A DNA stretch of 64,000 bases. Source: an uncultured Phycisphaerales bacterium. Its GTDB lineage: Bacteria > Planctomycetota > Phycisphaerae > SM23-33. Below the pieces are notes generated by a model, which was not told the DNA's origin, did not search any database, and was given only the letters and a program-made list of their open reading frames with translations. The stretch lies in assembly GCA_965369385.1 (NCBI GenBank), contig CBDUQP010000002.1, forward strand, positions 783 through 64,782, given 5' to 3'. Every line of letters starts with the position of its first letter. Within the stretch, counting starts at the first letter, position 1. A program made the position numbers and the translations under genes. Of this stretch, positions 5,664 to 42,974 are shown in pieces.

Positions 5664-6512
5664 ATGAAGCAGGCAAATGCCACCATTCTCGATCCGCAAG
5701 TGCAAACCATGCTGGACCACTTCTGCGTGCTGCTATCGATACGCATCGCGTTCATCTCCACCGACGGAGATGAACTAGCCACCGGCGGTAACTGGCGAAG
5801 CTGCCGCTATTGCAGGTATCTCAGGGAACGTCTCGGATTCGAGCACAAGTGCAGAGCGTTGGATATGGCGATGTTCACCCAGACCTCCCAAACGAAGCAG
5901 CTCGTATCCTACGAATGTCATGCCGGGCTCAGCGAAGCGGTAATGCCCGTCTACCTCTACGAAGAGCTGCTGGGCTTCGTGATGATCGGGCAGTATCGCT
6001 GCCGCAAGAAGATGCCCGCATCGATTCGCAAACAGTGGTCCGAACGATACAAGACAGAGCAACTCGCCAGGGCTTTCGAGATAACTCCCTACCTGACACC
6101 CGTCCGCAAAGAGCACGTGCTTGGGCTCGTGCAGGTACTTGCCGATCACATAGTCTCCCGCCACATGGTACGATTTGGCAGCGATGGCATACTTCGTCCC
6201 GTGCTGGAACATATGCAGCAGAACCTGTACCGCAATGTTTCGCTGGCAGAAGCCGCCGCGATAGTCCATCGTAGCCCGCACACGCTTTCGCACATGTTCG
6301 CCAAGCTCCTTAACAGAAGCTTCAAGCAGGTGCAGATAGACATGAAGCTCGACAAGGCCCAGGAACTCCTGCGAAGCCCCGAAGGGACCACCGTAAAAGA
6401 AGTGGCATACCAGCTAGGGTACCGCGACCCGCTCTACTTCTCGCGACTGTTCCGCAAACATCGCGGCATGGCCCCAAGTCAATACGCAAAATACCGTCCC
6501 AGCGTGGCATAA
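5664..6512 (+). CDS. AraC-family transcriptional regulator with N-terminal PocR-type sensory domain
   Basis: N-terminal PocR-like ligand-binding region and a C-terminal AraC double HTH (..SLAEAAAIVHRSPHTLSHMFAKLLNRSFKQVQIDMKLDKAQELLRSPEGTTVKEVAYQLGYRDPLYFSRLFRKHRGMAPSQY). Confidence 0.75.
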   Translation: MKQANATILDPQVQTMLDHFCVLLSIRIAFISTDGDELATGGNWRSCRYCRYLRERLGFEHKCRALDMAMFTQTSQTKQLVSYECHAGLSEAVMPVYLYEELLGFVMIGQYRCRKKMPASIRKQWSERYKTEQLARAFEITPYLTPVRKEHVLGLVQVLADHIVSRHMVRFGSDGILRPVLEHMQQNLYRNVSLAEAAAIVHRSPHTLSHMFAKLLNRSFKQVQIDMKLDKAQELLRSPEGTTVKEVAYQLGYRDPLYFSRLFRKHRGMAPSQYAKYRPSVA

Positions 6513-6605: not shown

Positions 6606-7763
6606 ATGTTGAATTTCGAGTTCCACAACCCTGTAAGAATCGCCTTCGGGCGAGGGACTATCGCCGAACTGAAGAACCTGCTGCCAGAAGATGCACGGAT
6701 CATGATTATCTATGGCGGCGGGTCCATAAAGCGAAATGGCGTTTACGATCAGGTTATGGAAGCGATCGCTGGGCGAGATGTATGCGAGTTCGGCGGGATC
6801 GAGCCAAACCCGCTCCACGAAACTTGCATGAAAGCTGTAGAGCAGGCCAAATCCGCCAACGCCAATTTCCTGCTGTCAGTCGGTGGCGGATCGGCGTTGG
6901 ACGCCACCAAATACATAGCCGCCGCAATGCTGTACGAAGGCGAAGATCCGTATGACATGTGCCTCAAGAAAACACAGTGCCAGGCCGCCATCAAACTCGG
7001 CTGCGTGCTCACGCTGCCTGCTACCGGTTCGGAGATGAACATTAACGCGGTGATCTCCCGCGCATCCACACAGGAGAAACATGCTTTCTTCTCCGAGCAT
7101 GTGTATCCGCAATTCGCCATACTCGACCCCGAAACCACATTCACCCTGCCCGAGCGCCAGACCGCAAACGGCATCGTTGACGCGTTTATTCACGTGATTG
7201 AGCAATATGTGACATACGACGTCAACAGCCCCTTGGTCGACCGACAGGCTGAAGCAATCCTCCTTACGCTGATCGAGGAAGGCCCGAAGGTAATGGCGAA
7301 CCCCACGGACTATGACGCGAGAGCAAACATAATGTGGTGCGCTACACATGCCCTCAACGGAATCCTGAAATGCGGAGCAGTCGGGGACTGGGCCACGCAC
7401 CTGATCGGCCACGAGTTGACCGCCCTTTATGACTTGGACCACGCGCGTGCACTGGCAGTTGTCCTGCCTGGCCTATGGCAACACGAGCGAGAGCGAAAGA
7501 AAGGCAAGCTCCTGAAATACGCAGAGAGAATCTGGCAGATCACTGACGGCAGCGAGGACGAGCGAATCGACGCCGCCATCGCCCGCACAGAAACATTCTT
7601 CCGCTCACTCGGCTTGGGGACCACTTTCGCAGAATGCGACATCCCCGCTGACACCCCGCAGAAAGTGTTCGAACGATTCACCGCCCGTGGTGGAGTCCAA
7701 CTGGGCGAACACCAGGACATAGGCGCCCAGGAAGCGAAGGACATCCTGGCCCTGCGGGCGTAG
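6606..7763 (+). CDS. Iron-containing alcohol dehydrogenase (Fe-ADH; YqhD/FucO-like NAD(P)-dependent alcohol/aldehyde reductase)
   Basis: 385 aa with a GGGSALDATK nucleotide-binding motif and metal-binding His residues (HALNG, HLIGHELT). Full-length Fe-ADH architecture, immediately downstream of the PocR-AraC regulator. Confidence 0.85.
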   Translation: MLNFEFHNPVRIAFGRGTIAELKNLLPEDARIMIIYGGGSIKRNGVYDQVMEAIAGRDVCEFGGIEPNPLHETCMKAVEQAKSANANFLLSVGGGSALDATKYIAAAMLYEGEDPYDMCLKKTQCQAAIKLGCVLTLPATGSEMNINAVISRASTQEKHAFFSEHVYPQFAILDPETTFTLPERQTANGIVDAFIHVIEQYVTYDVNSPLVDRQAEAILLTLIEEGPKVMANPTDYDARANIMWCATHALNGILKCGAVGDWATHLIGHELTALYDLDHARALAVVLPGLWQHERERKKGKLLKYAERIWQITDGSEDERIDAAIARTETFFRSLGLGTTFAECDIPADTPQKVFERFTARGGVQLGEHQDIGAQEAKDILALRA

Positions 7764-7888: not shown

Positions 7889-8173
7889 TTGGATGAGCCG
7901 GAATTGTTGACAAACAGCGAGTTGGCCAATCGGGCGAGTTTCTCCCGCTCGCAGTTTCAGGTGAAATTTCGTCAGTCGACCGGTATGTCTCCCGGCGAGT
8001 ATGTCATGCGCAGGCGGATCGAACAGGCGTCGAAGTTGCTTTCCGGCGGGCGACACTCTGTGACCGAGGTCGCCTTTCGACTTGGTTTTTCCTCCAGCCA
8101 GTATTTCGCGACGGTTTTTCGGAAATACACGAATAAACTCCCGTCCATGTTGACTCCTGCCGGCCGCAAATGA
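7889..8173 (+). CDS. AraC-family HTH-only protein (C-terminal DNA-binding domain without a sensor domain; possible gene remnant)
   Basis: 94 aa: LTNSELANRASFSRSQFQVKFRQSTGMSPGEYVMRRRIEQASKLLSGGRHSVTEVAFRLGFSSSQYFATVFRKYTNKLP is a complete AraC double HTH. It uses a TTG start. An in-frame stop lies only ~45 nt upstream, so no N-terminal effector domain exists. Confidence 0.5.
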   Translation: MDEPELLTNSELANRASFSRSQFQVKFRQSTGMSPGEYVMRRRIEQASKLLSGGRHSVTEVAFRLGFSSSQYFATVFRKYTNKLPSMLTPAGRK

Positions 8174-8281
8174 TCCAGTGGGCTCGAAATCTCTCCGATG
8201 CGCAGGAGGGGTTCGTGAAGGGCGAATTCATATCTCCCCATAATGAATAGTATTGCCAACACATACTCCGACCTCTACCAT

Positions 8282-8303
8282 TGCATGCACTCAGGTGCAT
8301 GCG
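8282..8303. promoter_or_regulatory. Perfect 9-bp inverted repeat TGCATGCAC-tcag-GTGCATGCA (candidate operator or hairpin)
   Basis: Read directly from the sequence. It lies ~30 bp upstream of the left target-site duplication of the MITE-like element, i.e. where the promoter/operator of the 8720 gene would have sat before the insertion. Confidence 0.4.
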
Positions 8304-8333: not shown

Positions 8334-8719
8334 GGAGTCTGACATGAATGGCACTGCCGTCCGTTTTGGCCGTTCTTTGCCGTTCGGGCCGGAGGTCCGA
8401 TGGGCAGTAAGCCGGGCGGTGACCGAAGGGAACCCCCGGAACCGGATCGGACCCCCCAATATCAGAACCCCGCAAGGGGTGGCGAGAGAAGCTTCACAGC
8501 GGGTTGGATGCCTGATAACTGGGCAAATTTTGTGCCAATTGTTCGTGTCACTTCGCAGGATGGCGTCTCCCCCCGGCCCTTCGGGACGGGGAGTTATTTG
8601 TCGCGTATCCGGGGGCTGCGCCGCGACTTACGTCGCAGCTTACCCCCGGCTAACCGCCCATCGGACCTTCGGCCCGAACGGCAAGAAACACGGACGGCAG
8701 CGCCATTGGAGTCTGACAT
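8334..8719. mobile_element. MITE-like non-autonomous element (core 8346-8707, 362 bp) with ~65-bp imperfect terminal inverted repeats, flanked by a perfect 12-bp direct repeat GGAGTCTGACAT (8334-8345 and 8708-8719)
   Basis: Left end GAATGGCACTGCCGTCCGTTTTGGCCGTTCTTTGCCGTTCGGGCCGGAGGTCCGATGGGCAG. The reverse complement of the right end is AATGGCGCTGCCGTCCGTGTTTCTTGCCGTTCGGGCCGAAGGTCCGATGGGCGG. The 12-bp direct repeat sits immediately outside both ends. The interior has no credible ORF and is GC-rich and hairpin-rich. Confidence 0.7.
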
Positions 8720-10501
8720 ATGTCTGATACCACGAAATCCGGAGTGCACTTCCTTTGGTTGCCTATCCTTGCATTCTGCGTGATGGTGAGCCAAGCGTCG
8801 GCCGCTGAATTGCGATTCGGACTGACTGCGGACAATAAGATATGCTACACCGTCGAGTCAGGGGATAAGCTGGAAGTCCTGCAGAACTTCGACGGACGTC
8901 TGAGTTTCATGGGCGATGCCGGGAAGGGTATGCAATGCCTCTTGCGAGATGGTTCAAAAACGCCAAGCGGGAAGATTAGAGTTGGAGGCATAATCGTCAA
9001 GACCGTCGAAGGCCAGGCCAAAGCCCAAGTCAAGATCTTTGTCATCGAAGACGTTTCGAAGAAATACATATCCGGAAGAACCGATTACATAGGACTCGGC
9101 GAACTGGCAAAGGTGCCCTGCCCCCTTCAAAGTTATCAGTACGCGATCACGGAGAACAATGAACTGATCCTGGCCAGGCCGATCCCGGTATTGGCGGCGG
9201 CCCGAGTCCTGAAGGATTTCACTCGCGGGTCTGTGCTGAATGACAAGTTAACCGCTAATCATTTCATGAATGGCAAGTTCGCGATGGTTTCGGGGAAGAT
9301 ATTGCCTGATGGTCGAATTCGTCTACCCGGCAAGCAACCCGCAACTGGCCGGCCGCAGGTTGCCCGGAAAAACGGGAAAACGAAGTTACGAACGGTTATA
9401 CCGTCCAAGGGGCCCGGCATATGGGTGACCGCCATCGGACACTACGGCCAGGCCAAAGATTCGGACGTCATCGTCTACGTGTTAACGGATACGGAATTCG
9501 CCCGGTACGAGAAGAAGCAGACCCCGCTGCGACGTGGCGAAAAAGCGCCGCTGATGCTTCGTAACCTGAAGCCCGGCAGATATCATGTCGGCGTGGAGCA
9601 GCTACTGGACCCTTCCTTCATTCGGCCGAGACTGTTCAAACGACCCGCGGTGGGAGACCTGCTGGCCGGCAAGCCAACGAAAACGCAAGATCCGCTGTCT
9701 GACTACCTTGATGACCGCCCCGCAAAACGCGCTGTGGAGATTCGCGTTGTTTCCGACAGTGACAGCAAGGGCAAAACTGCTTACTATCAGATGAAGTGGT
9801 ATGTTGTCGAGGTTACGGAGAGCCACCTCGTTCCCGTGGTCTGCCTGCTTCTTCAGAAAGGGGTTCCGCTAGACAAACTGGCCGGTGAGTATCCCCGGGA
9901 GCAGCAATTCGACATCACCGCTTCCGAGGAGCTGATGCAGACATTCTGGCGCGGTATTGGCCGGTTCGGACCGGAACTGACGCCAAAGCAGCGGGAGATA
10001 ATCACGCGGCTCTTGCGGCGGGGCGGAAAGGTTTGTCTGCCTGGCGCGAGAACGCCCGCCATCGTTTCCGTTGGACCTGTGGGCAAACCACGCGCTCGGT
10101 TTGGCCTTGGCAATATCAAGCAACCTGGAAAGTCGGATCTGGTGACGCTGAATGAACCGGTTATCGTCGCCGAGTCGACGAATCGGTCCAAACCAGCTAG
10201 CTCATTACCTCGCTTCAAAGAAGAACTGAGAGGCACCAATCAGGTTCAAATCGTTAACCCCAATAAGTTCTCCGTCGAGGTACGTCTTCGCTCGGGAAAC
10301 AAGGGGGCGAATTTCACGGTAGCACCCGAACGCACCGAATCGGTCTTTGTCGGTGACGGCTGTTATGAAGTGTACTTCGTCTATTCGAATCAGCCCAAGG
10401 TGCTGTATCGTGGCGAAAGCGTAAGCCTTCATGGCAGTGGGGTGCGGATCAAACTCGTGCAAGTGGCCGGCGGTAACTACTCTATTCGTAAGGCCCAATA
10501 G
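8720..10501 (+). CDS. Secreted hypothetical protein (593 aa, no recognisable domain)
   Basis: ATG preceded by GGAG (the right-hand direct repeat of the MITE-like element) at -12. N-terminal signal peptide FLWLPILAFCVMVSQASAAE. Long uninterrupted ORF with no matches to families I recognise. Confidence 0.6.
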   Translation: MSDTTKSGVHFLWLPILAFCVMVSQASAAELRFGLTADNKICYTVESGDKLEVLQNFDGRLSFMGDAGKGMQCLLRDGSKTPSGKIRVGGIIVKTVEGQAKAQVKIFVIEDVSKKYISGRTDYIGLGELAKVPCPLQSYQYAITENNELILARPIPVLAAARVLKDFTRGSVLNDKLTANHFMNGKFAMVSGKILPDGRIRLPGKQPATGRPQVARKNGKTKLRTVIPSKGPGIWVTAIGHYGQAKDSDVIVYVLTDTEFARYEKKQTPLRRGEKAPLMLRNLKPGRYHVGVEQLLDPSFIRPRLFKRPAVGDLLAGKPTKTQDPLSDYLDDRPAKRAVEIRVVSDSDSKGKTAYYQMKWYVVEVTESHLVPVVCLLLQKGVPLDKLAGEYPREQQFDITASEELMQTFWRGIGRFGPELTPKQREIITRLLRRGGKVCLPGARTPAIVSVGPVGKPRARFGLGNIKQPGKSDLVTLNEPVIVAESTNRSKPASSLPRFKEELRGTNQVQIVNPNKFSVEVRLRSGNKGANFTVAPERTESVFVGDGCYEVYFVYSNQPKVLYRGESVSLHGSGVRIKLVQVAGGNYSIRKAQ

Positions 10502-10509
10502 GCCCGTCG

Positions 10510-11548
10510 TCAGCCTTCGCTATTGGGGCCGGCGAGCGTGGAGCCTTCTTCGAATTCACCCGGCAGGATGAGCCTGGACCTGCATGGCTTGTCCGGGGAT
10601 TCCAATCGCCCCAGCAACATGGCCGCGGCCTCGTAGCCCATGTCGTAGCGGGCGTAGCTCATTCGCGTCAGTGCCGGCCAGATAACTTCCATGAAGTGAT
10701 CGCCATCGCAACACGCCAGACCGTAGTGAACGCCCGGCAGCATACCGCGTGTCTGCATAACGTCACGAGTCCAGGCGGCGTATGACGGCGATTGTGCGAT
10801 CACGGCCACATCCGGAGCAAGCAGCGATGCAAGCTCGTCGCTTCGCCCTTCGGCATCTTCGCGTCGCTGTGCGGTGAACTCTCGCACTTCGAGCCCCGCT
10901 TCGGCTGCCCCCGAGATTACACCGCGGTATCTCGCCTGGGCGGAGTAGTGAGGTTGCAGGCCACCTTCGGTGGTTTCCATATCGAACGAATACCAGAGGA
11001 TACTGCTGTAGCCCTTCTCCGCGGCCGCCAGCGCCAGCGTCCTGCCGACAGTCAACTCGTCACGCCTCACGCATCCCTCATCCCGCCAGACATTGTTGTC
11101 CAGCCAGATGCACCTGTCCTTGAACTCTTCATCCACGCGGGCGGTCACCTTATCGGACAAGACATCGAGCAGGATGATCCCATCCAGGACATGCTCCTCG
11201 AAGATGCGAGAATGCGTCCCGTCGCGGGTATCGCTGATCCTTATAAGCCCCATATACCCCTGAGCGTTGAGGCAGTCGTTAATGCCGAGAAAGAACTCGT
11301 ACGCCGGCAGGTACTTGAAGCGTTTCTTGCCAGGCTCGCTTCGGGGCAGGACGCCTATGGCCTTCGTTTTGCCGGTTCGCATCGCCCGGGCGACCAGGTT
11401 CGGGCGGTAATTCATATCCCTGGCTGCATCGAGCACCAGCTTCTTCGTCTCGTCCCGGAATCTACCGCGATTGTTCAGCACGTGGCTGACGGTCGGCAGC
11501 GAAAGGCCGGTCTTCTGGGCGAGTTGTTTTGAGTGTTACGCGGGCCAT
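10510..11548 (-). pseudogene. LacI-family transcriptional regulator interrupted by a 1-bp insertion (frameshift) in an A4 run just after the start codon
   Basis: ATG at 11548-11546 gives MARVTLKTTRPEDRPFAADRQPRAEQSR*. A -1 shift after MARVTLK restores ..QLAQKTGLSLPTVSHVLNNRGRFRDETKKLVLDAARDMNYRPNLVARAMRTGKTKAIGVL.., near-identical to the intact paralog at 17847-18887. The shift is in the CTCAAAACAACTC run (plus-strand TTTT 11527-11530). The ORF track's 10510-11481 is the internal GTG-initiated remainder. Confidence 0.7.
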
Positions 11549-38741: not shown

Positions 38742-38754
38742 TGTTCAGCGATAG

Positions 38755-38937
38755 CACGCATAAGCGAAAATGGGAAGCGAAAATGGGGACTGTACCGATT
38801 CTGGGACTGTCCCCACTTTCGCGTCGTGCGCTATCTGACGCAGCATACGCTATCGACCGCAAAAGCGGGGACAGTCCCAACATCGGGACAGTCCCCGTTT
38901 TTGCTCGTCTTTGATCCGTCCCCGCCACATGTGGAGA
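38755..38937. repeat. REP/BIME-like structured repeat, copy A (two inverted ~46-bp arms, each built from GGGGAC(A/T)GTCCCC palindromes)
   Basis: Arm 1 is GCGAAAATGGGGACTGTACCGATTCTGGGACTGTCCCCACTTTCGCG at 38777-38823. Arm 2 is its near reverse complement at 38859-38904. Sits immediately after the CoA-transferase stop. Near-identical copies at 41200-41390, 42646-42756 and partially at 49641-49734. Confidence 0.8.
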
Positions 38938-39003
38938 CGGGGCGGCTGCCATTCAGAGAGAATCGCAACCGCCCCGCTCTTGTCTACCGCTATAATCAGT
39001 AAT

Positions 39004-39744
39004 CTACCTGCGGTTCCTGCGGAACATCGCCAGTGCGCCGAGGGCCAGCAAACTCAGCGTAGCCGGTTCGGGAACGGCAGCATACTCGACATGACCCGTC
39101 ACCGTAATACCTTCGGCAAAGCCATCGGTGAAACCAGCTATATCGAGTCCGAAAGTACGAGTCGAAGACGTGCCCGCAACAGCAACATCAGCTGGATTCC
39201 AGCTAACAAGATCATAATCATTTACCAGTGCCCAAGACAGACCGCTGCCGGTCAGGGCAACTGCTGCCGACGTGCCGGTATTGCCTGCCGTGGTCTCCGC
39301 CCAGTTAGCATAATCATCACCAGCAACCTGGTAAACGGTGGCGTGGCGGCCGGCATAGACGCTGATACTGTCAATCACGAGCGTCATCGGGGCAGCGCCT
39401 TGCCCTGTCAGTCCACCGGTATACTCCGCAGCAATCGTAACGCCGAAGCTGATCCTGCCGGAGTAATTGCCGGTAGTTCCATCAGCAAGTATCCCGGACC
39501 CAAATGTTGGCCCAGTACTCGACCAGAAGGCACCTACCGGACCTGGGGCAATAGTGACAGTCACATCAAAATCACCCGTTACCCCGGTGTTGGTAGCGGA
39601 CGTTTCGGTGTCACCCCAACCAGCTTCAGTACCGCACCCATACGCCAGCGAAAACGTGTTGCTGGTCAGAACTTGGGCCGACGCCCCGGTCGTCACCGCG
39701 ACCAAAACAGCCAACGCTGCTACAATTCCTAGAGTTCTCATCAT
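39004..39744 (-). CDS. PEP-CTERM domain exported protein
   Basis: Signal peptide MMRTLGIVAALAVLVAVTTGASAQ and C-terminal VPEPATLSLLALGALAMFRRNRR sorting signal. Gly/Thr-rich body. Confidence 0.8.
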   Translation of the reverse strand: MMRTLGIVAALAVLVAVTTGASAQVLTSNTFSLAYGCGTEAGWGDTETSATNTGVTGDFDVTVTIAPGPVGAFWSSTGPTFGSGILADGTTGNYSGRISFGVTIAAEYTGGLTGQGAAPMTLVIDSISVYAGRHATVYQVAGDDYANWAETTAGNTGTSAAVALTGSGLSWALVNDYDLVSWNPADVAVAGTSSTRTFGLDIAGFTDGFAEGITVTGHVEYAAVPEPATLSLLALGALAMFRRNRR

Positions 39745-40043
39745 CTTGGCTCTCCTTGAATCTCCGTCTACATTTGATTCTTGTCAGTCAATCAATTCTT
39801 CACCGCTCCCACATGACACCTTGACCTACCCAACCTGGAGCCTCACTTTTCCGTCTTGACGCAAGTCGATTTGGTGTTGTTCGCAGCTCTAATCGAGTGA
39901 CCTGATGCCGGGCACCCTGCCCGACACCACATACGATACCACCGATTCTGGTATTGTCAAGGTCTTAAATAGGATTATCTCTTGGATGTATTGGATATTG
40001 TGGTATATTAAGACTGTGACGAAGTTGTTGATGTATCCGCTAC

Positions 40044-41195
40044 GTGGTAGTAGATTGCATTACTGAAGAAGCGAATTGCAGCACTGATGTACGGCGAATT
40101 CATAGGATTATGAGAAGAATACCGGCACAAACCGACCTTGCAAACGACCTTGCCAATGCCCTGCTACAGGACGTTCGTGACAGGGGATTGCAAGAGGGCG
40201 ACCGCTATTACACCACGGAAGAAGCCGGCCATAAGTTCTCCGTTTGCAAAGAAACGGCAAGAAAGGCCATGAAAATACTGGCCGGACGCGACGTGCTGGT
40301 GCGCCTCCGGCGGAGGGGAACTTTCGTGGGCTCGATGGCCGCAGCCAGACCGCAGCCCAAAGTCGCCCGAAGGCGGCTTCTCGTGCTGACACCGCCTGTC
40401 GTTTGCAGTTCCCCACAACTCGAATTCAGTCAGATTCCGCATTTTCTGGATCAGGCGATGAACAACATCTTCATCCAGAGCCATATCCTCCCTCTGGATG
40501 CGGACGTATCGATTATTCGGGAAATGGTCGACAACGTCAGAAACACCGGCCATCTTGACGGGATAGTCAGCGGTTCCCGCACGCGCGAGGTGCATGATTA
40601 TATGACCTCACTTGATGTCCCGGCGGTGGTTCTGGGCACGCTGGATTCGGGACAGACCGACCTGTCATCGCTGGACCTGGATTACAATCAAGCCGGTAGA
40701 CTGCTGGCGGAATATGTGATTGGACTGGGACACACCCACGTAATCGCCCAGTTGGCCAATAATTTTCGCGGGGATCATCACTTCGCCGACAGCATCGCCG
40801 ACGTTATGTCGGCAGCTCATTTACCGCCGAGTTCCCTGAGAGTAAGAACCTTCTGCGGTGATCTTGAAACCGTCCGTGCCAATTTCAGAGACCTGCTGAG
40901 CAATAACAACCGCCCGACAGCCATCATAACGCGCGGCCGGGCGCTGGCGGATACTGCGGCGGCGGCAGCCGATGACGTGGGGCTTTGCATCAGCAAGGAT
41001 ATCGAGATCGTCTGGTCGGGAAGCGCACTGAAAGTCGAAGAGTATTCCCCTTACGTCAACGTCCAGTCAAAACTCGGCATGGACGAGATAGCGTCGATGG
41101 TAGCGAAGATGCTCGAAGACCAGAGAGAGGGCAGAGCGCTTGAGGAAAAACACGTCTTCATCCCCGCCGAACTGTGCATGCCCTCGGTAAATTAG
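40044..41195 (+). CDS. GntR-type HTH regulator with PBP-like effector domain
   Basis: wHTH (..YYTTEEAGHKFSVCKETARKAMKILAGRDVLVRLRRRGTFV..) followed by a LacI/PBP-like domain. The true start may be an internal Met (~40108). Confidence 0.6.
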   Translation: MVVDCITEEANCSTDVRRIHRIMRRIPAQTDLANDLANALLQDVRDRGLQEGDRYYTTEEAGHKFSVCKETARKAMKILAGRDVLVRLRRRGTFVGSMAAARPQPKVARRRLLVLTPPVVCSSPQLEFSQIPHFLDQAMNNIFIQSHILPLDADVSIIREMVDNVRNTGHLDGIVSGSRTREVHDYMTSLDVPAVVLGTLDSGQTDLSSLDLDYNQAGRLLAEYVIGLGHTHVIAQLANNFRGDHHFADSIADVMSAAHLPPSSLRVRTFCGDLETVRANFRDLLSNNNRPTAIITRGRALADTAAAAADDVGLCISKDIEIVWSGSALKVEEYSPYVNVQSKLGMDEIASMVAKMLEDQREGRALEEKHVFIPAELCMPSVN

Positions 41196-41199
41196 GCCC

Positions 41200-41390
41200 C
41201 TCGCGGTGGCTCGCATGTGCGAAAATGGGAAGCGAAAATGGGGACTGTACCGATTCTGGGACTGTCCCCACTTTCGCGTCATACGCTATCTGACGCAACA
41301 TAGGTTATCGACCGCAAAAACGGGGACAGTCCCAGAATCGGTACAGTCCCCGTTTTTGCTCGTCTTTGATCCGTCCCCGCCACATGTGGC
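41200..41390. repeat. REP/BIME-like structured repeat, copy B (most complete copy)
   Basis: TCGCGGTGGCTCGCATGTGCG-AAAATGGGAAGCGAAAATGGGGACTGTACCGATTCTGGGACTGTCCCCACTTTCGCG...GCAAAAACGGGGACAGTCCCAGAATCGGTACAGTCCCCGTTTTTGC-TCGTCTTTGATCCGTCCCCGCCACATGTGGC. Starts 5 bp after the regulator stop codon. Confidence 0.8.
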
Positions 41391-41583
41391 ATTTTTATGT
41401 TCAAACCTGTGCCAAAGCATGGAAAAATGATCCCTCAGAGCGCAAGATATGCATCGTTCAGATGGTTTGGCACAATGGGCCATGCGAATCCGTCTGGCAG
41501 ACCGGCAACCGGTGACAGAGCGTCGCCGAAGACCCGGAAAAATCCCGGACAAGCTACCAGGCCCAGATACAGGATAGAATAAC

Positions 41584-42603
41584 GTGACTACTCCTCTTCG
41601 TTTTGCGTTCGTTGGTTTCAGACATGGACACATCATGGCCCTGCTGGCGGCCGTCAAGGAACACGCCTGCTGCGAGCTGGTTGCCTGCTGCGAGGAAGAT
41701 GTTGAAAACTCGCTCGTGAATGACAACATCGAAATAACCCACACCGATTACGACAGGATGCTCGCCGAAGTTGACTGCGATGTGATAGCCGTGGGCGACT
41801 ACTACGAAAAGCGCGGCGCGATCATTATCAGTGCACTGAAAGCAGGCAAGCACGTGATCGCAGACAAACCGATCTGCACAACGCTTGATGAACTGGCCAC
41901 GATAGAGAACCTCTCCAAAGCGAAACAGCTTTCGGTCGGCTGCCAGCTTGACCTCCGCGGCGTGGGCTGGTGCCGCACCATGCGCACCATGGTCAACGAA
42001 GGCAAAATCGGCGAAGTTCACACCATCACATTCTCCGGCCAGCATCCCCTGGCTGTGGGCGAGCGTCCCGACTGGTACTTCCAGGACAATTGCCACGGCG
42101 GAACCATCAACGATATCGCCATCCACGGTATTGACCTGATACCCTGGATGACCGGACGAAAGATTGTGGAAGTGGTGGCAGCACGCGGCTGGAATGCACG
42201 ATGCAAAGCGAACAAGAGCTTCCAGGACGGCGCTCAACTGATGCTGCGTCTGGATAACGATGGCGGTGTGCTGGCAGATGTATCGTACCTGAAGCCCGAA
42301 AAATGCACTGCGAACCTCCAGCAGTACTGGCGTTTCACCGTCCACGGCAGCGGTGGCATGATGGAAGGTTACTATGGATGTGACTCAATCGAGTACGTGA
42401 GCATGGAAGATGAAGGCGTCACAACGATCCCGTGCGAACCTGACGCCGTCGCAGCCTACCTCAACGATTTCCTCAAGGAAATAGCAGGCGAAACCCCAGA
42501 CGCTATCGATCTGACAACCGAGCAGGTGATAGAGTCGGCGAAGATCACGCTGCTGACGCAGAAGGCAGCCGATGAAGGCTGCTGCAACTTGTCTTGCAAG
42601 TAA
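41584..42603 (+). CDS. Gfo/Idh/MocA-family oxidoreductase
   Basis: Rossmann N-terminus (FAFVGFRHGHI..), EKP-like ADKPICT motif. 339 aa. Confidence 0.75.
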   Translation: MTTPLRFAFVGFRHGHIMALLAAVKEHACCELVACCEEDVENSLVNDNIEITHTDYDRMLAEVDCDVIAVGDYYEKRGAIIISALKAGKHVIADKPICTTLDELATIENLSKAKQLSVGCQLDLRGVGWCRTMRTMVNEGKIGEVHTITFSGQHPLAVGERPDWYFQDNCHGGTINDIAIHGIDLIPWMTGRKIVEVVAARGWNARCKANKSFQDGAQLMLRLDNDGGVLADVSYLKPEKCTANLQQYWRFTVHGSGGMMEGYYGCDSIEYVSMEDEGVTTIPCEPDAVAAYLNDFLKEIAGETPDAIDLTTEQVIESAKITLLTQKAADEGCCNLSCK

Positions 42604-42645
42604 CGCGGATGACACGTCAGCGCGACAAGCGGTGACGCACAATCG

Positions 42646-42756
42646 AGCGAAAATGGGGACTGTCCCGTCGTTGGGGACTGTCCCCACTTTCGCGGCGTAC
42701 GCTATCTACCGCAAAAGCGGGGACAGTCCCAGAATCGGTACAGTCCCCGTTTTTGC
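42646..42756. repeat. REP/BIME-like structured repeat, copy C (shorter spacer, variant arm 1)
   Basis: GCGAAAATGGGGACTGTCCCGTCGTTGGGGACTGTCCCCACTTTCGCG...GCAAAAGCGGGGACAGTCCCAGAATCGGTACAGTCCCCGTTTTTGC. The spacer is shortened, consistent with a deletion between the GCTATC direct repeats. Lies after the oxidoreductase stop. Confidence 0.8.
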
Positions 42757-42974
42757 TGCCTGACAACGGCACCTCCACTTCTAATCCGGGAATACTACAA
42801 TTCTTCAATATCCACTATTCTCTGTTCCTCGCGGGCAACATCGACCAGAAAACCTACGAGATGCCCGTAGATGGAATCTTCCAGGAAGGTAGCCGAAATC
42901 GATGGTGCCTGGCCGCGAATGACCTGCATGAAATCATTCACCACGATGGTGTTCCGCTGAAGCGATGTGAAAAA

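Follow-up and report, generated by a model that had tools for sequence, protein, structure and literature searches.

The window analysed here, 64,000 nucleotides (64 kb) of a contig from an uncultured Phycisphaerales bacterium, carries a MITE (miniature inverted-repeat transposable element) immediately upstream of an intact gene for a 593-aa protein (8720-10501, + strand). It is very probable that this MITE, which has the ends of a clade of IS4-family insertion sequences (ISs), was moved in trans and landed downstream of the promoter region of the 593-aa gene but upstream of its Shine-Dalgarno sequence.

Structure and copies of the inserted element

The insertion is delimited by a direct repeat. 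As a preliminary description of this DNA had stated, GGAGTCTGACAT is found at 8334-8345 and again at 8708-8719 as a perfect direct repeat (12/12 identical by repeat finder), and identity ends at the edges of the 12 bp, where the bordering bases no longer agree (A vs T 5' of the repeat, G vs A 3' of it). Chance does not account for an exact match of 11 to 12 nt that abuts both inverted-repeat ends, its probability being of the order of 4^-11 for each placement. The order in the window is ...cactggaaaG, GAGTCTGACAT, the element from GAATGGCACTGCCGTCCG to CGGACGGCAGCGCCATTG, a second GAGTCTGACAT, and ATGTCTGAT... In this parse the left copy of the target-site duplication is 8335-8345 and the right copy 8709-8719 (both on the + strand), the 12-bp repeat as first reported beginning at 8334. 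The MITE between them (8346-8708, 363 bp, non-coding, no strand assigned) is bounded by its inverted repeats and by the limits of similarity to a related copy on a metagenome scaffold (L151, see below).

The left terminal inverted repeat lies at 8346-8417 (+ strand) and the right one at 8645-8708 (- strand). When the element was aligned globally with its own reverse complement, ~72 nt of the termini could be aligned at ~90% identity with one indel of 6-7 nt; the imperfect terminal inverted repeats described before are thus present, with a larger extent than the ~65 bp first given. Palindromy is fainter but still present inward of these repeats. The repeat finder gives the arms as 8372-8416/8645-8689 (45 nt, 89%) and 8337-8367/8687-8717. 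Reading the ends as CAT...ATG, with TCTGA as a duplication of 5 bp, was rejected, as it would need an 11-nt indel in the inverted repeat.

The proposal that the element is non-coding held up, since we obtained no Pfam match in six frames and saw no codon-position GC periodicity. A remnant of a transposase gene within the MITE has no support (no Pfam match in any frame), and a coding reading based on both + frames being open was ruled out by the flat codon-position GC. Apart from ORFs (open reading frames) called across other copies, no protein homologue of the MITE was found. The G+C content of the MITE is 63%, compared with 56% for the window, and the folding check suggested earlier showed that both strands are predicted to fold far more stably than dinucleotide shuffles (z = -9.8 and -10.3). 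The conserved core of the element is CGTTCGGGCCGRAGGTCCGATGG. The small size with no transposase gene, the terminal inverted repeats, the matching duplication length and the termini in common with an autonomous element are all those of a MITE. The absence of a duplication and the hairpin ends that mark IS200/IS605-type or repetitive extragenic palindromic (REP)/bacterial interspersed mosaic element (BIME) sequences are not found here, the MITE having a perfect duplication.

Relatives of the MITE were found by an exhaustive HMMER search with one open MITE frame translated. The matches, P0129 (E = 2.5e-13) and P0132 (E = 1e-4), are both ORFs predicted across related copies. From P0129 we reached L151, a scaffold of 827 bp from an ENA metagenome, in which positions 295-782 align with the MITE with 82% of alignment columns identical, including a 50-nt identical block. 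The similarity runs from (G)ATGGCACTG to GCCATTG, which are the window termini, and the flanks are unrelated to those of the window; a second copy with different flanks bears out the earlier view of a non-autonomous MITE. L151 lacks the 12-nt repeat of the window, in keeping with this repeat being target DNA. The L151 copy lies within a module of a REP-like repeat family that is also present at window positions 38776-42760, and since its flanks belong to this family the L151 host is probably related to the window host. P0132 (195 aa, on a 78,028-bp NCBI/ENA contig) matches the right 105 nt of the MITE only, and its residues 112-152 translate the right end of a third MITE copy that has diverged further. 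The MITE is thus known from one copy in the window, one at a different locus in another metagenome (L151) and a third trace in P0132. The L151 copy has insertions of its own: 29 nt in the left repeat (L151:324-352) and an AT-rich stretch of ~70 nt near the right terminus (L151:696-762), which lies between direct repeats of CTGCCGTCTGT and parts the true 19-nt terminus from a truncated inner arm.

IS4-family relatives and target choice

It had been expected that a full-length partner with ends starting AATGGC would lie outside the window, and IS4-family elements with termini identical to those of the MITE do occur in metagenomes. A metagenome scan with the terminal 17-mer gave at least 120 matches; this pattern misses the L151-type variant CCGTCTGT. 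A two-copy profile gave a weak double match in one locus from the scan, L075, and further members were found by tblastn of the L075 protein against the fetched loci and by a mismatch-tolerant terminus search. Among the 17-mer matches listed, at least eight loci carry IS4-family elements or their ends, and at least five of the elements are full-length (1643-1679 bp): L075 355-2007 (1653 bp), L080 330-1982 (1653 bp), L062 1120-2762 (1643 bp), L108 35-1683 (1649 bp), and L034 2-1680 (1679 bp). L073 has a partial element, and L015 and L068 have isolated ends. Outside the IS4-clade loci, the matches listed are mostly one conserved human-gut gene. About 60 loci between L004 and L121 (e.g., L004-L006, L009, L012) have one conserved human-gut sequence, GCTGGTCACG.CCGGCCAC.TCCAGAATGGCGCTGCCGTCCGTCCG..., which is unrelated to the MITE.

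The IS in L075 is bounded by 18-nt termini that are perfect inverted repeats (GAATGGCACTGCCGTCCG at 355-372 and 1990-2007). Its 470-aa ORF is recognised as an 'IS4 family transposase' by NCBIfam NF033592 (E = 3.9e-60; score 203.7 bits, cut-off 115) and also matches Pfam DDE_Tnp_1. The five transposases, each encoded by a single ORF, are 65-71% identical among themselves and 23-28% identical over the full length to InsG of E. coli IS4. All five show the family motif Y-(2)-R-(3)-E-(6)-K in the form YG[FY]RWN[AV]ELDIRx[IV]K, aligned with YSHRWEIELGYREIK of InsG, and the DDE residues are aligned in all of them. Their closest plasmid-borne relatives are annotated IS4-family genes with at most 39% identity. 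On these sequence features the full-length relatives can be assigned to the IS4 family.

The MITE and these ISs are tied together by their ends. The termini of the five ISs are GAATGGCACTGCCGT(CCGT); all ten start with GAATGGCACTGCCGT, and the five right ends have GAATGGCACTGCCGTCCGT in common. The first 19 nt of the MITE (8346-8364) are identical to this right inverted repeat (IRR) consensus (19/19), and the terminal 19 nt of its right end, CAATGGCGCTGCCGTCCGT, match it at 17/19 positions. The form nAATG is present at every end of the MITE and of the five ISs, while positions 14-16 read GTC versus WTW in the IS4 subgroup, with the central T alone matching. In size (1643-1679 bp) the full-length ISs are at or just above the upper limit of that subgroup, which is characterized by ends of the form -AATR--------WTW----, direct repeats of 10-13 bp and a size of 1400-1650 bp (Table 1, De Palmenaer et al. 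2008, PMC2266710).

The relatives also bear on the length of the duplication. The L080 IS is flanked on both sides by GGGTCAGGAAC (11/11 identical), where a 12-nt register fails. Nucleotide 1 is G at all full-length IS ends, and the right-end nucleotide 1 is C in both MITE copies. Because of the exact 11-bp duplication at L080, the G/C that precedes AATGGC as nucleotide 1 in the full-length relatives and the target matrix described below, we take 11 bp (GAGTCTGACAT) as the most likely length of the window duplication and 8346 to 8708 as the most likely extent of the element. The target-site duplication reported in the preliminary description therefore stands as such, with a length that is probably 11 rather than 12 bp, and the element is more likely 363 bp than 362 bp (8346-8707). 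The twelfth matching G (8334 and 8708) is, in the simplest reading, coincidental under an 11-bp duplication. A 12-bp duplication in the window is possible by analogy with the IS4 subgroup, which makes 10-13 bp. The IS4 copy of E. coli K-12 has nAATG ends and a 12-bp duplication.

When read toward the element end, the flanks of the family are mostly GGGWCWGNMAC or its complement, and the flanks in at least five loci read GGGAC(A/T)GTC.. With a matrix made from the non-window flanks, the window 11-mer ranked 222 of 127,232 positions (0.17%), and after a shift by one base the score was -11 bits. The highest target scores in the window belong to REP-like palindromes such as GGGACAGTCCC. This suggests, from about ten flanks in metagenome contigs, that the target choice of the clade is sequence-selective and probably REP-directed; a much more remote possibility is that of a lineage dedicated to REP targeting that recognises an 11-bp site. 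The window itself has intergenic REP/BIME-like repeats of ~190 bp at 38745-38935, 41200-41390, and 42650-42790, built of two inverted 48-nt palindromic modules (AGCGAAAATGGGGACTGTACCGATTCTGGGACTGTCCCCACTTTCGCG) that are 34 nt apart; two of the copies are ~90% identical. Their cores, GGGAC(A/T)GTCCC, are the best window matches to the target consensus of the IS4 clade and are all unoccupied. This REP-like family is unrelated in sequence to the MITE.

Two further observations were made at the full-length elements. The L075 IS appears to interrupt a serine-hydrolase (beta-lactamase-like) gene (L075:300-354 and 2008-2848) with no duplication and with ~8 codons that seem lost, pointing to a deletion next to the element or to a chimeric contig. 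At L080:1983-2060 the 11-bp duplication is followed by a 39-nt fragment identical to the left end of the same element, then by GGGACAGTCAC and by the end (GAATGGCATTAAG...) of another element of the IS4 clade; insertions have occurred repeatedly at target-like sites here and form a nest.

The 593-aa gene and the competing explanations

The 593-aa protein, taken to be secreted, has a signal-peptide-like N-terminus and belongs to no Pfam family. Among 5.8 billion clustered proteins it has only two homologues (58 and 50% identity), whose N-termini align as MxxTTK and back ATG 8720 as the start codon. GGAG (8708-8711) lies 8 nt before this ATG; this spacing had been reported correctly, and under the 11-bp reading the first G is contributed by the last base of the MITE (G8708). 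The reconstructed empty site is aaaGGAGTCTGACATATGTCT, two bases longer than the pre-insertion site first given, and the uninterrupted junction would read AAAGGAGTCTGACATATGTCT. One homologue (L001) has AAAGGAG-N8-GTG, with the same spacing as AAAGGAG-N8-ATG in the reconstructed empty site. The upstream DNA of both homologues (L001 and L002) has no significant similarity to the MITE or to the native upstream DNA. The element is therefore an addition to the locus and not a conserved leader of the gene; a conserved leader had been named earlier as the finding that would speak against an insertion.

Upstream of the insertion, a sigma-70-like promoter candidate, TTGCCA-17-TACCAT, is located at 8253-8281 (+ strand); it comes from a consensus scan alone and may not be of the host's promoter type. 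Directly 3' of its -10 candidate is a short inverted repeat, TGCATGCAC-N4-GTGCATGCG (8282-8303), which is complementary at 8/9 positions, where a 9-bp repeat had first been reported; it could serve the native gene as an operator or as a leader hairpin. Through the insertion the start codon came to lie 374 bp further from the promoter candidate and the 5' leader of the gene grew from ~55 to ~430 nt, and GGAG-N8-ATG was preserved.

We propose the following course of events. A geneless MITE, whose two ends each carry the 19-nt sequence that the transposase of an undescribed IS4-family clade recognises, would be cut from a donor site by transposase supplied in trans and pasted into GAGTCTGACAT, which resembles the clade target GGGWCWGNMAC. 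Staggered cleavage of the target and repair would yield the 11-bp duplication, the twelfth G being the element's own last base. With the insertion point between the promoter region and the Shine-Dalgarno sequence, GGAG-N8-ATG would be kept while the leader gains a hairpin-forming insert of 363 nt. A read-through transcript would then fold into a long stem of the two terminal repeats, which by analogy with the Correia elements discussed below may be a substrate of RNase III, and transcription might terminate in part at an internal hairpin. Translation of an ORF created at the junction could open the structure and bring ribosomes to the true start, and in this way partly offset a reduction or change in expression. 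The mobilisation in trans is one that we infer, and the insertion appears to be recent rather than a long-selected arrangement because the duplication is perfect. The most likely consequence would be reduced or altered expression of the 593-aa gene, via the double-stranded stem and the terminator-like hairpin.

Three features within the MITE enter into these considerations. The junction-created upstream ORF (8344-8727, + strand, 127 codons) starts at an ATG formed by AT of the duplication and the first G of the element, six nt past AAAGGAG, and is open across the whole MITE; its TGA (8725-8727) lies such that the ORF overlaps the gene start at ATG 8720 (ATGTCTGA). Its openness is unremarkable (p = 0.064 in shuffles) and its GC by codon position is 0.61/0.61/0.63 versus ~0.59/0.42/0.63 in real genes. 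Since openness of this kind is not unusual and a coding signature is missing, the ORF is seen as a by-product, possibly relevant for translational coupling. A G+C-rich hairpin with a UUCG loop followed by TTATTTGT (8565-8601, sense strand of the gene, -17.3 kcal/mol) is terminator-like, and is kept, and perfect, in L151. The - strand carries a sigma-54 -24/-12 consensus, TGGCAC-N5-TTGC (TGGCACaaaatTTGC, 8523-8537), the only perfect match in the 64 kb, which faces away from the gene; it is probably incidental because the GC of its -12 element reads GT in L151.

A different account of the same region is a conserved structured leader RNA, riboswitch-like or an attenuator, in which the repeated 12 nt would be two ribosome-binding sites, that of a leader peptide and that of the gene. 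The very stable fold, the UUCG- and GNRA-capped hairpins and the upstream ORF, which runs from the first repeat into the gene start, are in line with it, and RNAalifold on the window and L151 copies (two sequences only) gave 118 pairs with 2 compensatory changes, ~10 one-sided changes and none broken by substitution. However, such pairing is expected if one transposase must recognise both ends or if the arms homogenise each other (at position 17 of the terminal repeat both window arms have C and all three L151 arms have T), and conservation of pairing alone is no argument for RNA function. An Rfam 15 scan of the region found no structured RNA family (best scores 15-18 bits, E > 1), and a scan for tRNA and tmRNA found none. 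Moreover, both homologues of the gene are without the element, the L151 copy is located in a REP-like repeat and not before a homologous gene, the termini are the inverted repeats of IS4-family elements, and the upstream ORF has neither a coding signature nor unusual openness. We consider the leader-RNA account very improbable and already largely refuted. It is also distinctly improbable that the internal stem-loops (UUCG/GNRA caps, copies ~18% divergent) specify a structured RNA that acts once co-transcribed, which would make the MITE a mobile riboregulator of whichever gene lies downstream.

Later co-option of the MITE, with its hairpins, terminator-like site or junction ORF regulating the gene or its sigma-54-like site driving an antisense RNA, is unlikely but deserves more weight. 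The insertion separates the promoter from the ribosome-binding site precisely and leaves the gene intact, the terminator-like hairpin is conserved in L151, the ATGTCTGA overlap suits termination-reinitiation, and the window's only perfect sigma-54 motif is within the MITE; MITE-borne promoters and RNase III sites in Correia elements (PMC2649163, PMC10969869) provide a precedent. On the other side, the perfect duplication points to a recent and not a long-selected event, the -12 element of the sigma-54 site is lost in L151, and hairpin conservation is expected anyway where both arms must stay alike. An origin without transposition, either as foreign DNA captured at a 12-bp microhomology by illegitimate recombination or as an assembly artefact of a metagenome-assembled genome, has in its favour that the element is single-copy in the window. 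We regard this origin as exceedingly improbable, as the inverted repeats are imperfect with an indel, unlike palindromes made by assemblers, the unit recurs with identical termini in an independent assembly (L151), and the termini belong to IS4-family elements with an 11-bp duplication.

A number of results weigh against insertion of an IS4-clade MITE as the explanation. Three of the four full-length copies with both flanks have no duplication, and the L151 copy has no clean one (6/11 in register); we assume that chimeric assembly across repeats and age account for these missing duplications. Descent of the MITE from the ISs is not apparent, as only ~19-22 terminal nt are shared and the sequences are unrelated beyond ~22 nt; for this reason the MITE apparently has IS ends, two right-end-like ones, rather than being a simple internal deletion of an IS. 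No other copy was detected in the window by blastn and profile search, and no transposase is encoded in the window, so that no source of transposase is apparent for this genome. Among 185,579 species-representative genomes the core 22-mer gave no match and the terminal 19-mer six chance matches, with no true copy; blastn with the MITE found no copy in plasmids and phages; and in viral contigs the terminal 17-mer gave 19 seed-only chance matches and the other patterns none. No empty-site allele was recovered, and the two distant homologues of the gene, whose upstream DNA is unrelated, do not serve as such.

A six-frame chimeric protein query gave no match in a word-indexed protein collection either, and the MITE is absent from the loci of the closest hydrogenase relatives (74-75% identity). 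Each of the seven window proteins looked up in a collection of 15 billion proteins forms a one-member cluster at 90% identity, and because of this the negative copy searches carry little power in a lineage without close database relatives. The closest [FeFe]-hydrogenase is 75% identical, and the named matches are from Planctomycetota.

The neighbouring genes are a PocR/AraC regulator (5664-6512), an iron-type alcohol dehydrogenase (6606-7763) and, between the latter and the MITE, a 94-aa ORF (7889-8173, + strand) that contains only an AraC helix-turn-helix, is preceded by in-frame stop codons and is apparently the 3' remnant of a regulator gene. A LacI-type regulator gene (10510-11481, - strand) follows the 593-aa gene.

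Comparison with known elements and implications

IS4 of E. coli has the target AAA-N20-TTT, consistent with its K-12 flanks, whereas the target of the present clade is GGGWCWGNMAC. The two have in common the nAATG termini (TAATGCC in IS4, GAATGGC here), a duplication of about one helical turn (12 bp in K-12, 10-13 bp in the IS4 subgroup and 11 bp in this clade) and, in the full-length relatives, a single-ORF DDE transposase with Y-2-R-3-E-6-K. Unlike IS4, the window element is 363 bp in length without a transposase, the transposases of its relatives are only 23-28% identical to InsG, and WTW at positions 14-16 of the subgroup is GTC in this clade. A marked target preference is a further likeness to the IS4 subgroup, for some members of which a 'spectacular' target specificity has been reported (PMC2266710). 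The selective target choice of the clade fits the specificity of these members.

Non-autonomous elements with IS4-family ends that are moved in trans are represented by MIC231 and other IS231-derived cassettes of Bacillus cereus. They resemble the MITE in being bounded by IS4-family ends, but are Firmicutes elements of another subgroup (CAT ends), frequently with passenger genes. A preference for short intergenic palindromic repeats is known for IS1397/ISKpn1 (IS3 family) and IS621 (IS110 family). A similar preference for palindromic repeats is suggested here by the ~ten flanks from metagenome contigs, although those ISs have transposases of other families and another chemistry.

Correia elements make a TA duplication. 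They differ from the MITE in the window in parent and duplication, in size (~100-150 bp) and in copy number (hundreds), the MITE being known from sequence alone. The Correia elements (nemis) of Neisseria are described as small MITEs that are often located just upstream of genes, are co-transcribed and can alter the expression of the neighbour, with inverted repeats that form a long RNA stem cut or bound by RNase III (PMC2649163; PMC10969869). By analogy, they are the best model for how the MITE would affect its gene.

MITEs, IS4-family elements and insertions of this kind are well known, so the class is not new. New to a modest degree are an undescribed MITE family from a poorly sampled and apparently Planctomycetota-like lineage, the family being new to the searchable collections; its probable drivers, an IS4-family clade at most 39% identical to any annotated plasmid-borne relative; and the hint that this clade aims at REP-like palindromes via an 11-bp target. 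In annotation, the long 5' region of the 593-aa gene is to be read as an insertion rather than as the gene's own leader. Should the population be polymorphic for this insertion, it would provide a natural on/off or dosage variant for the 593-aa gene.

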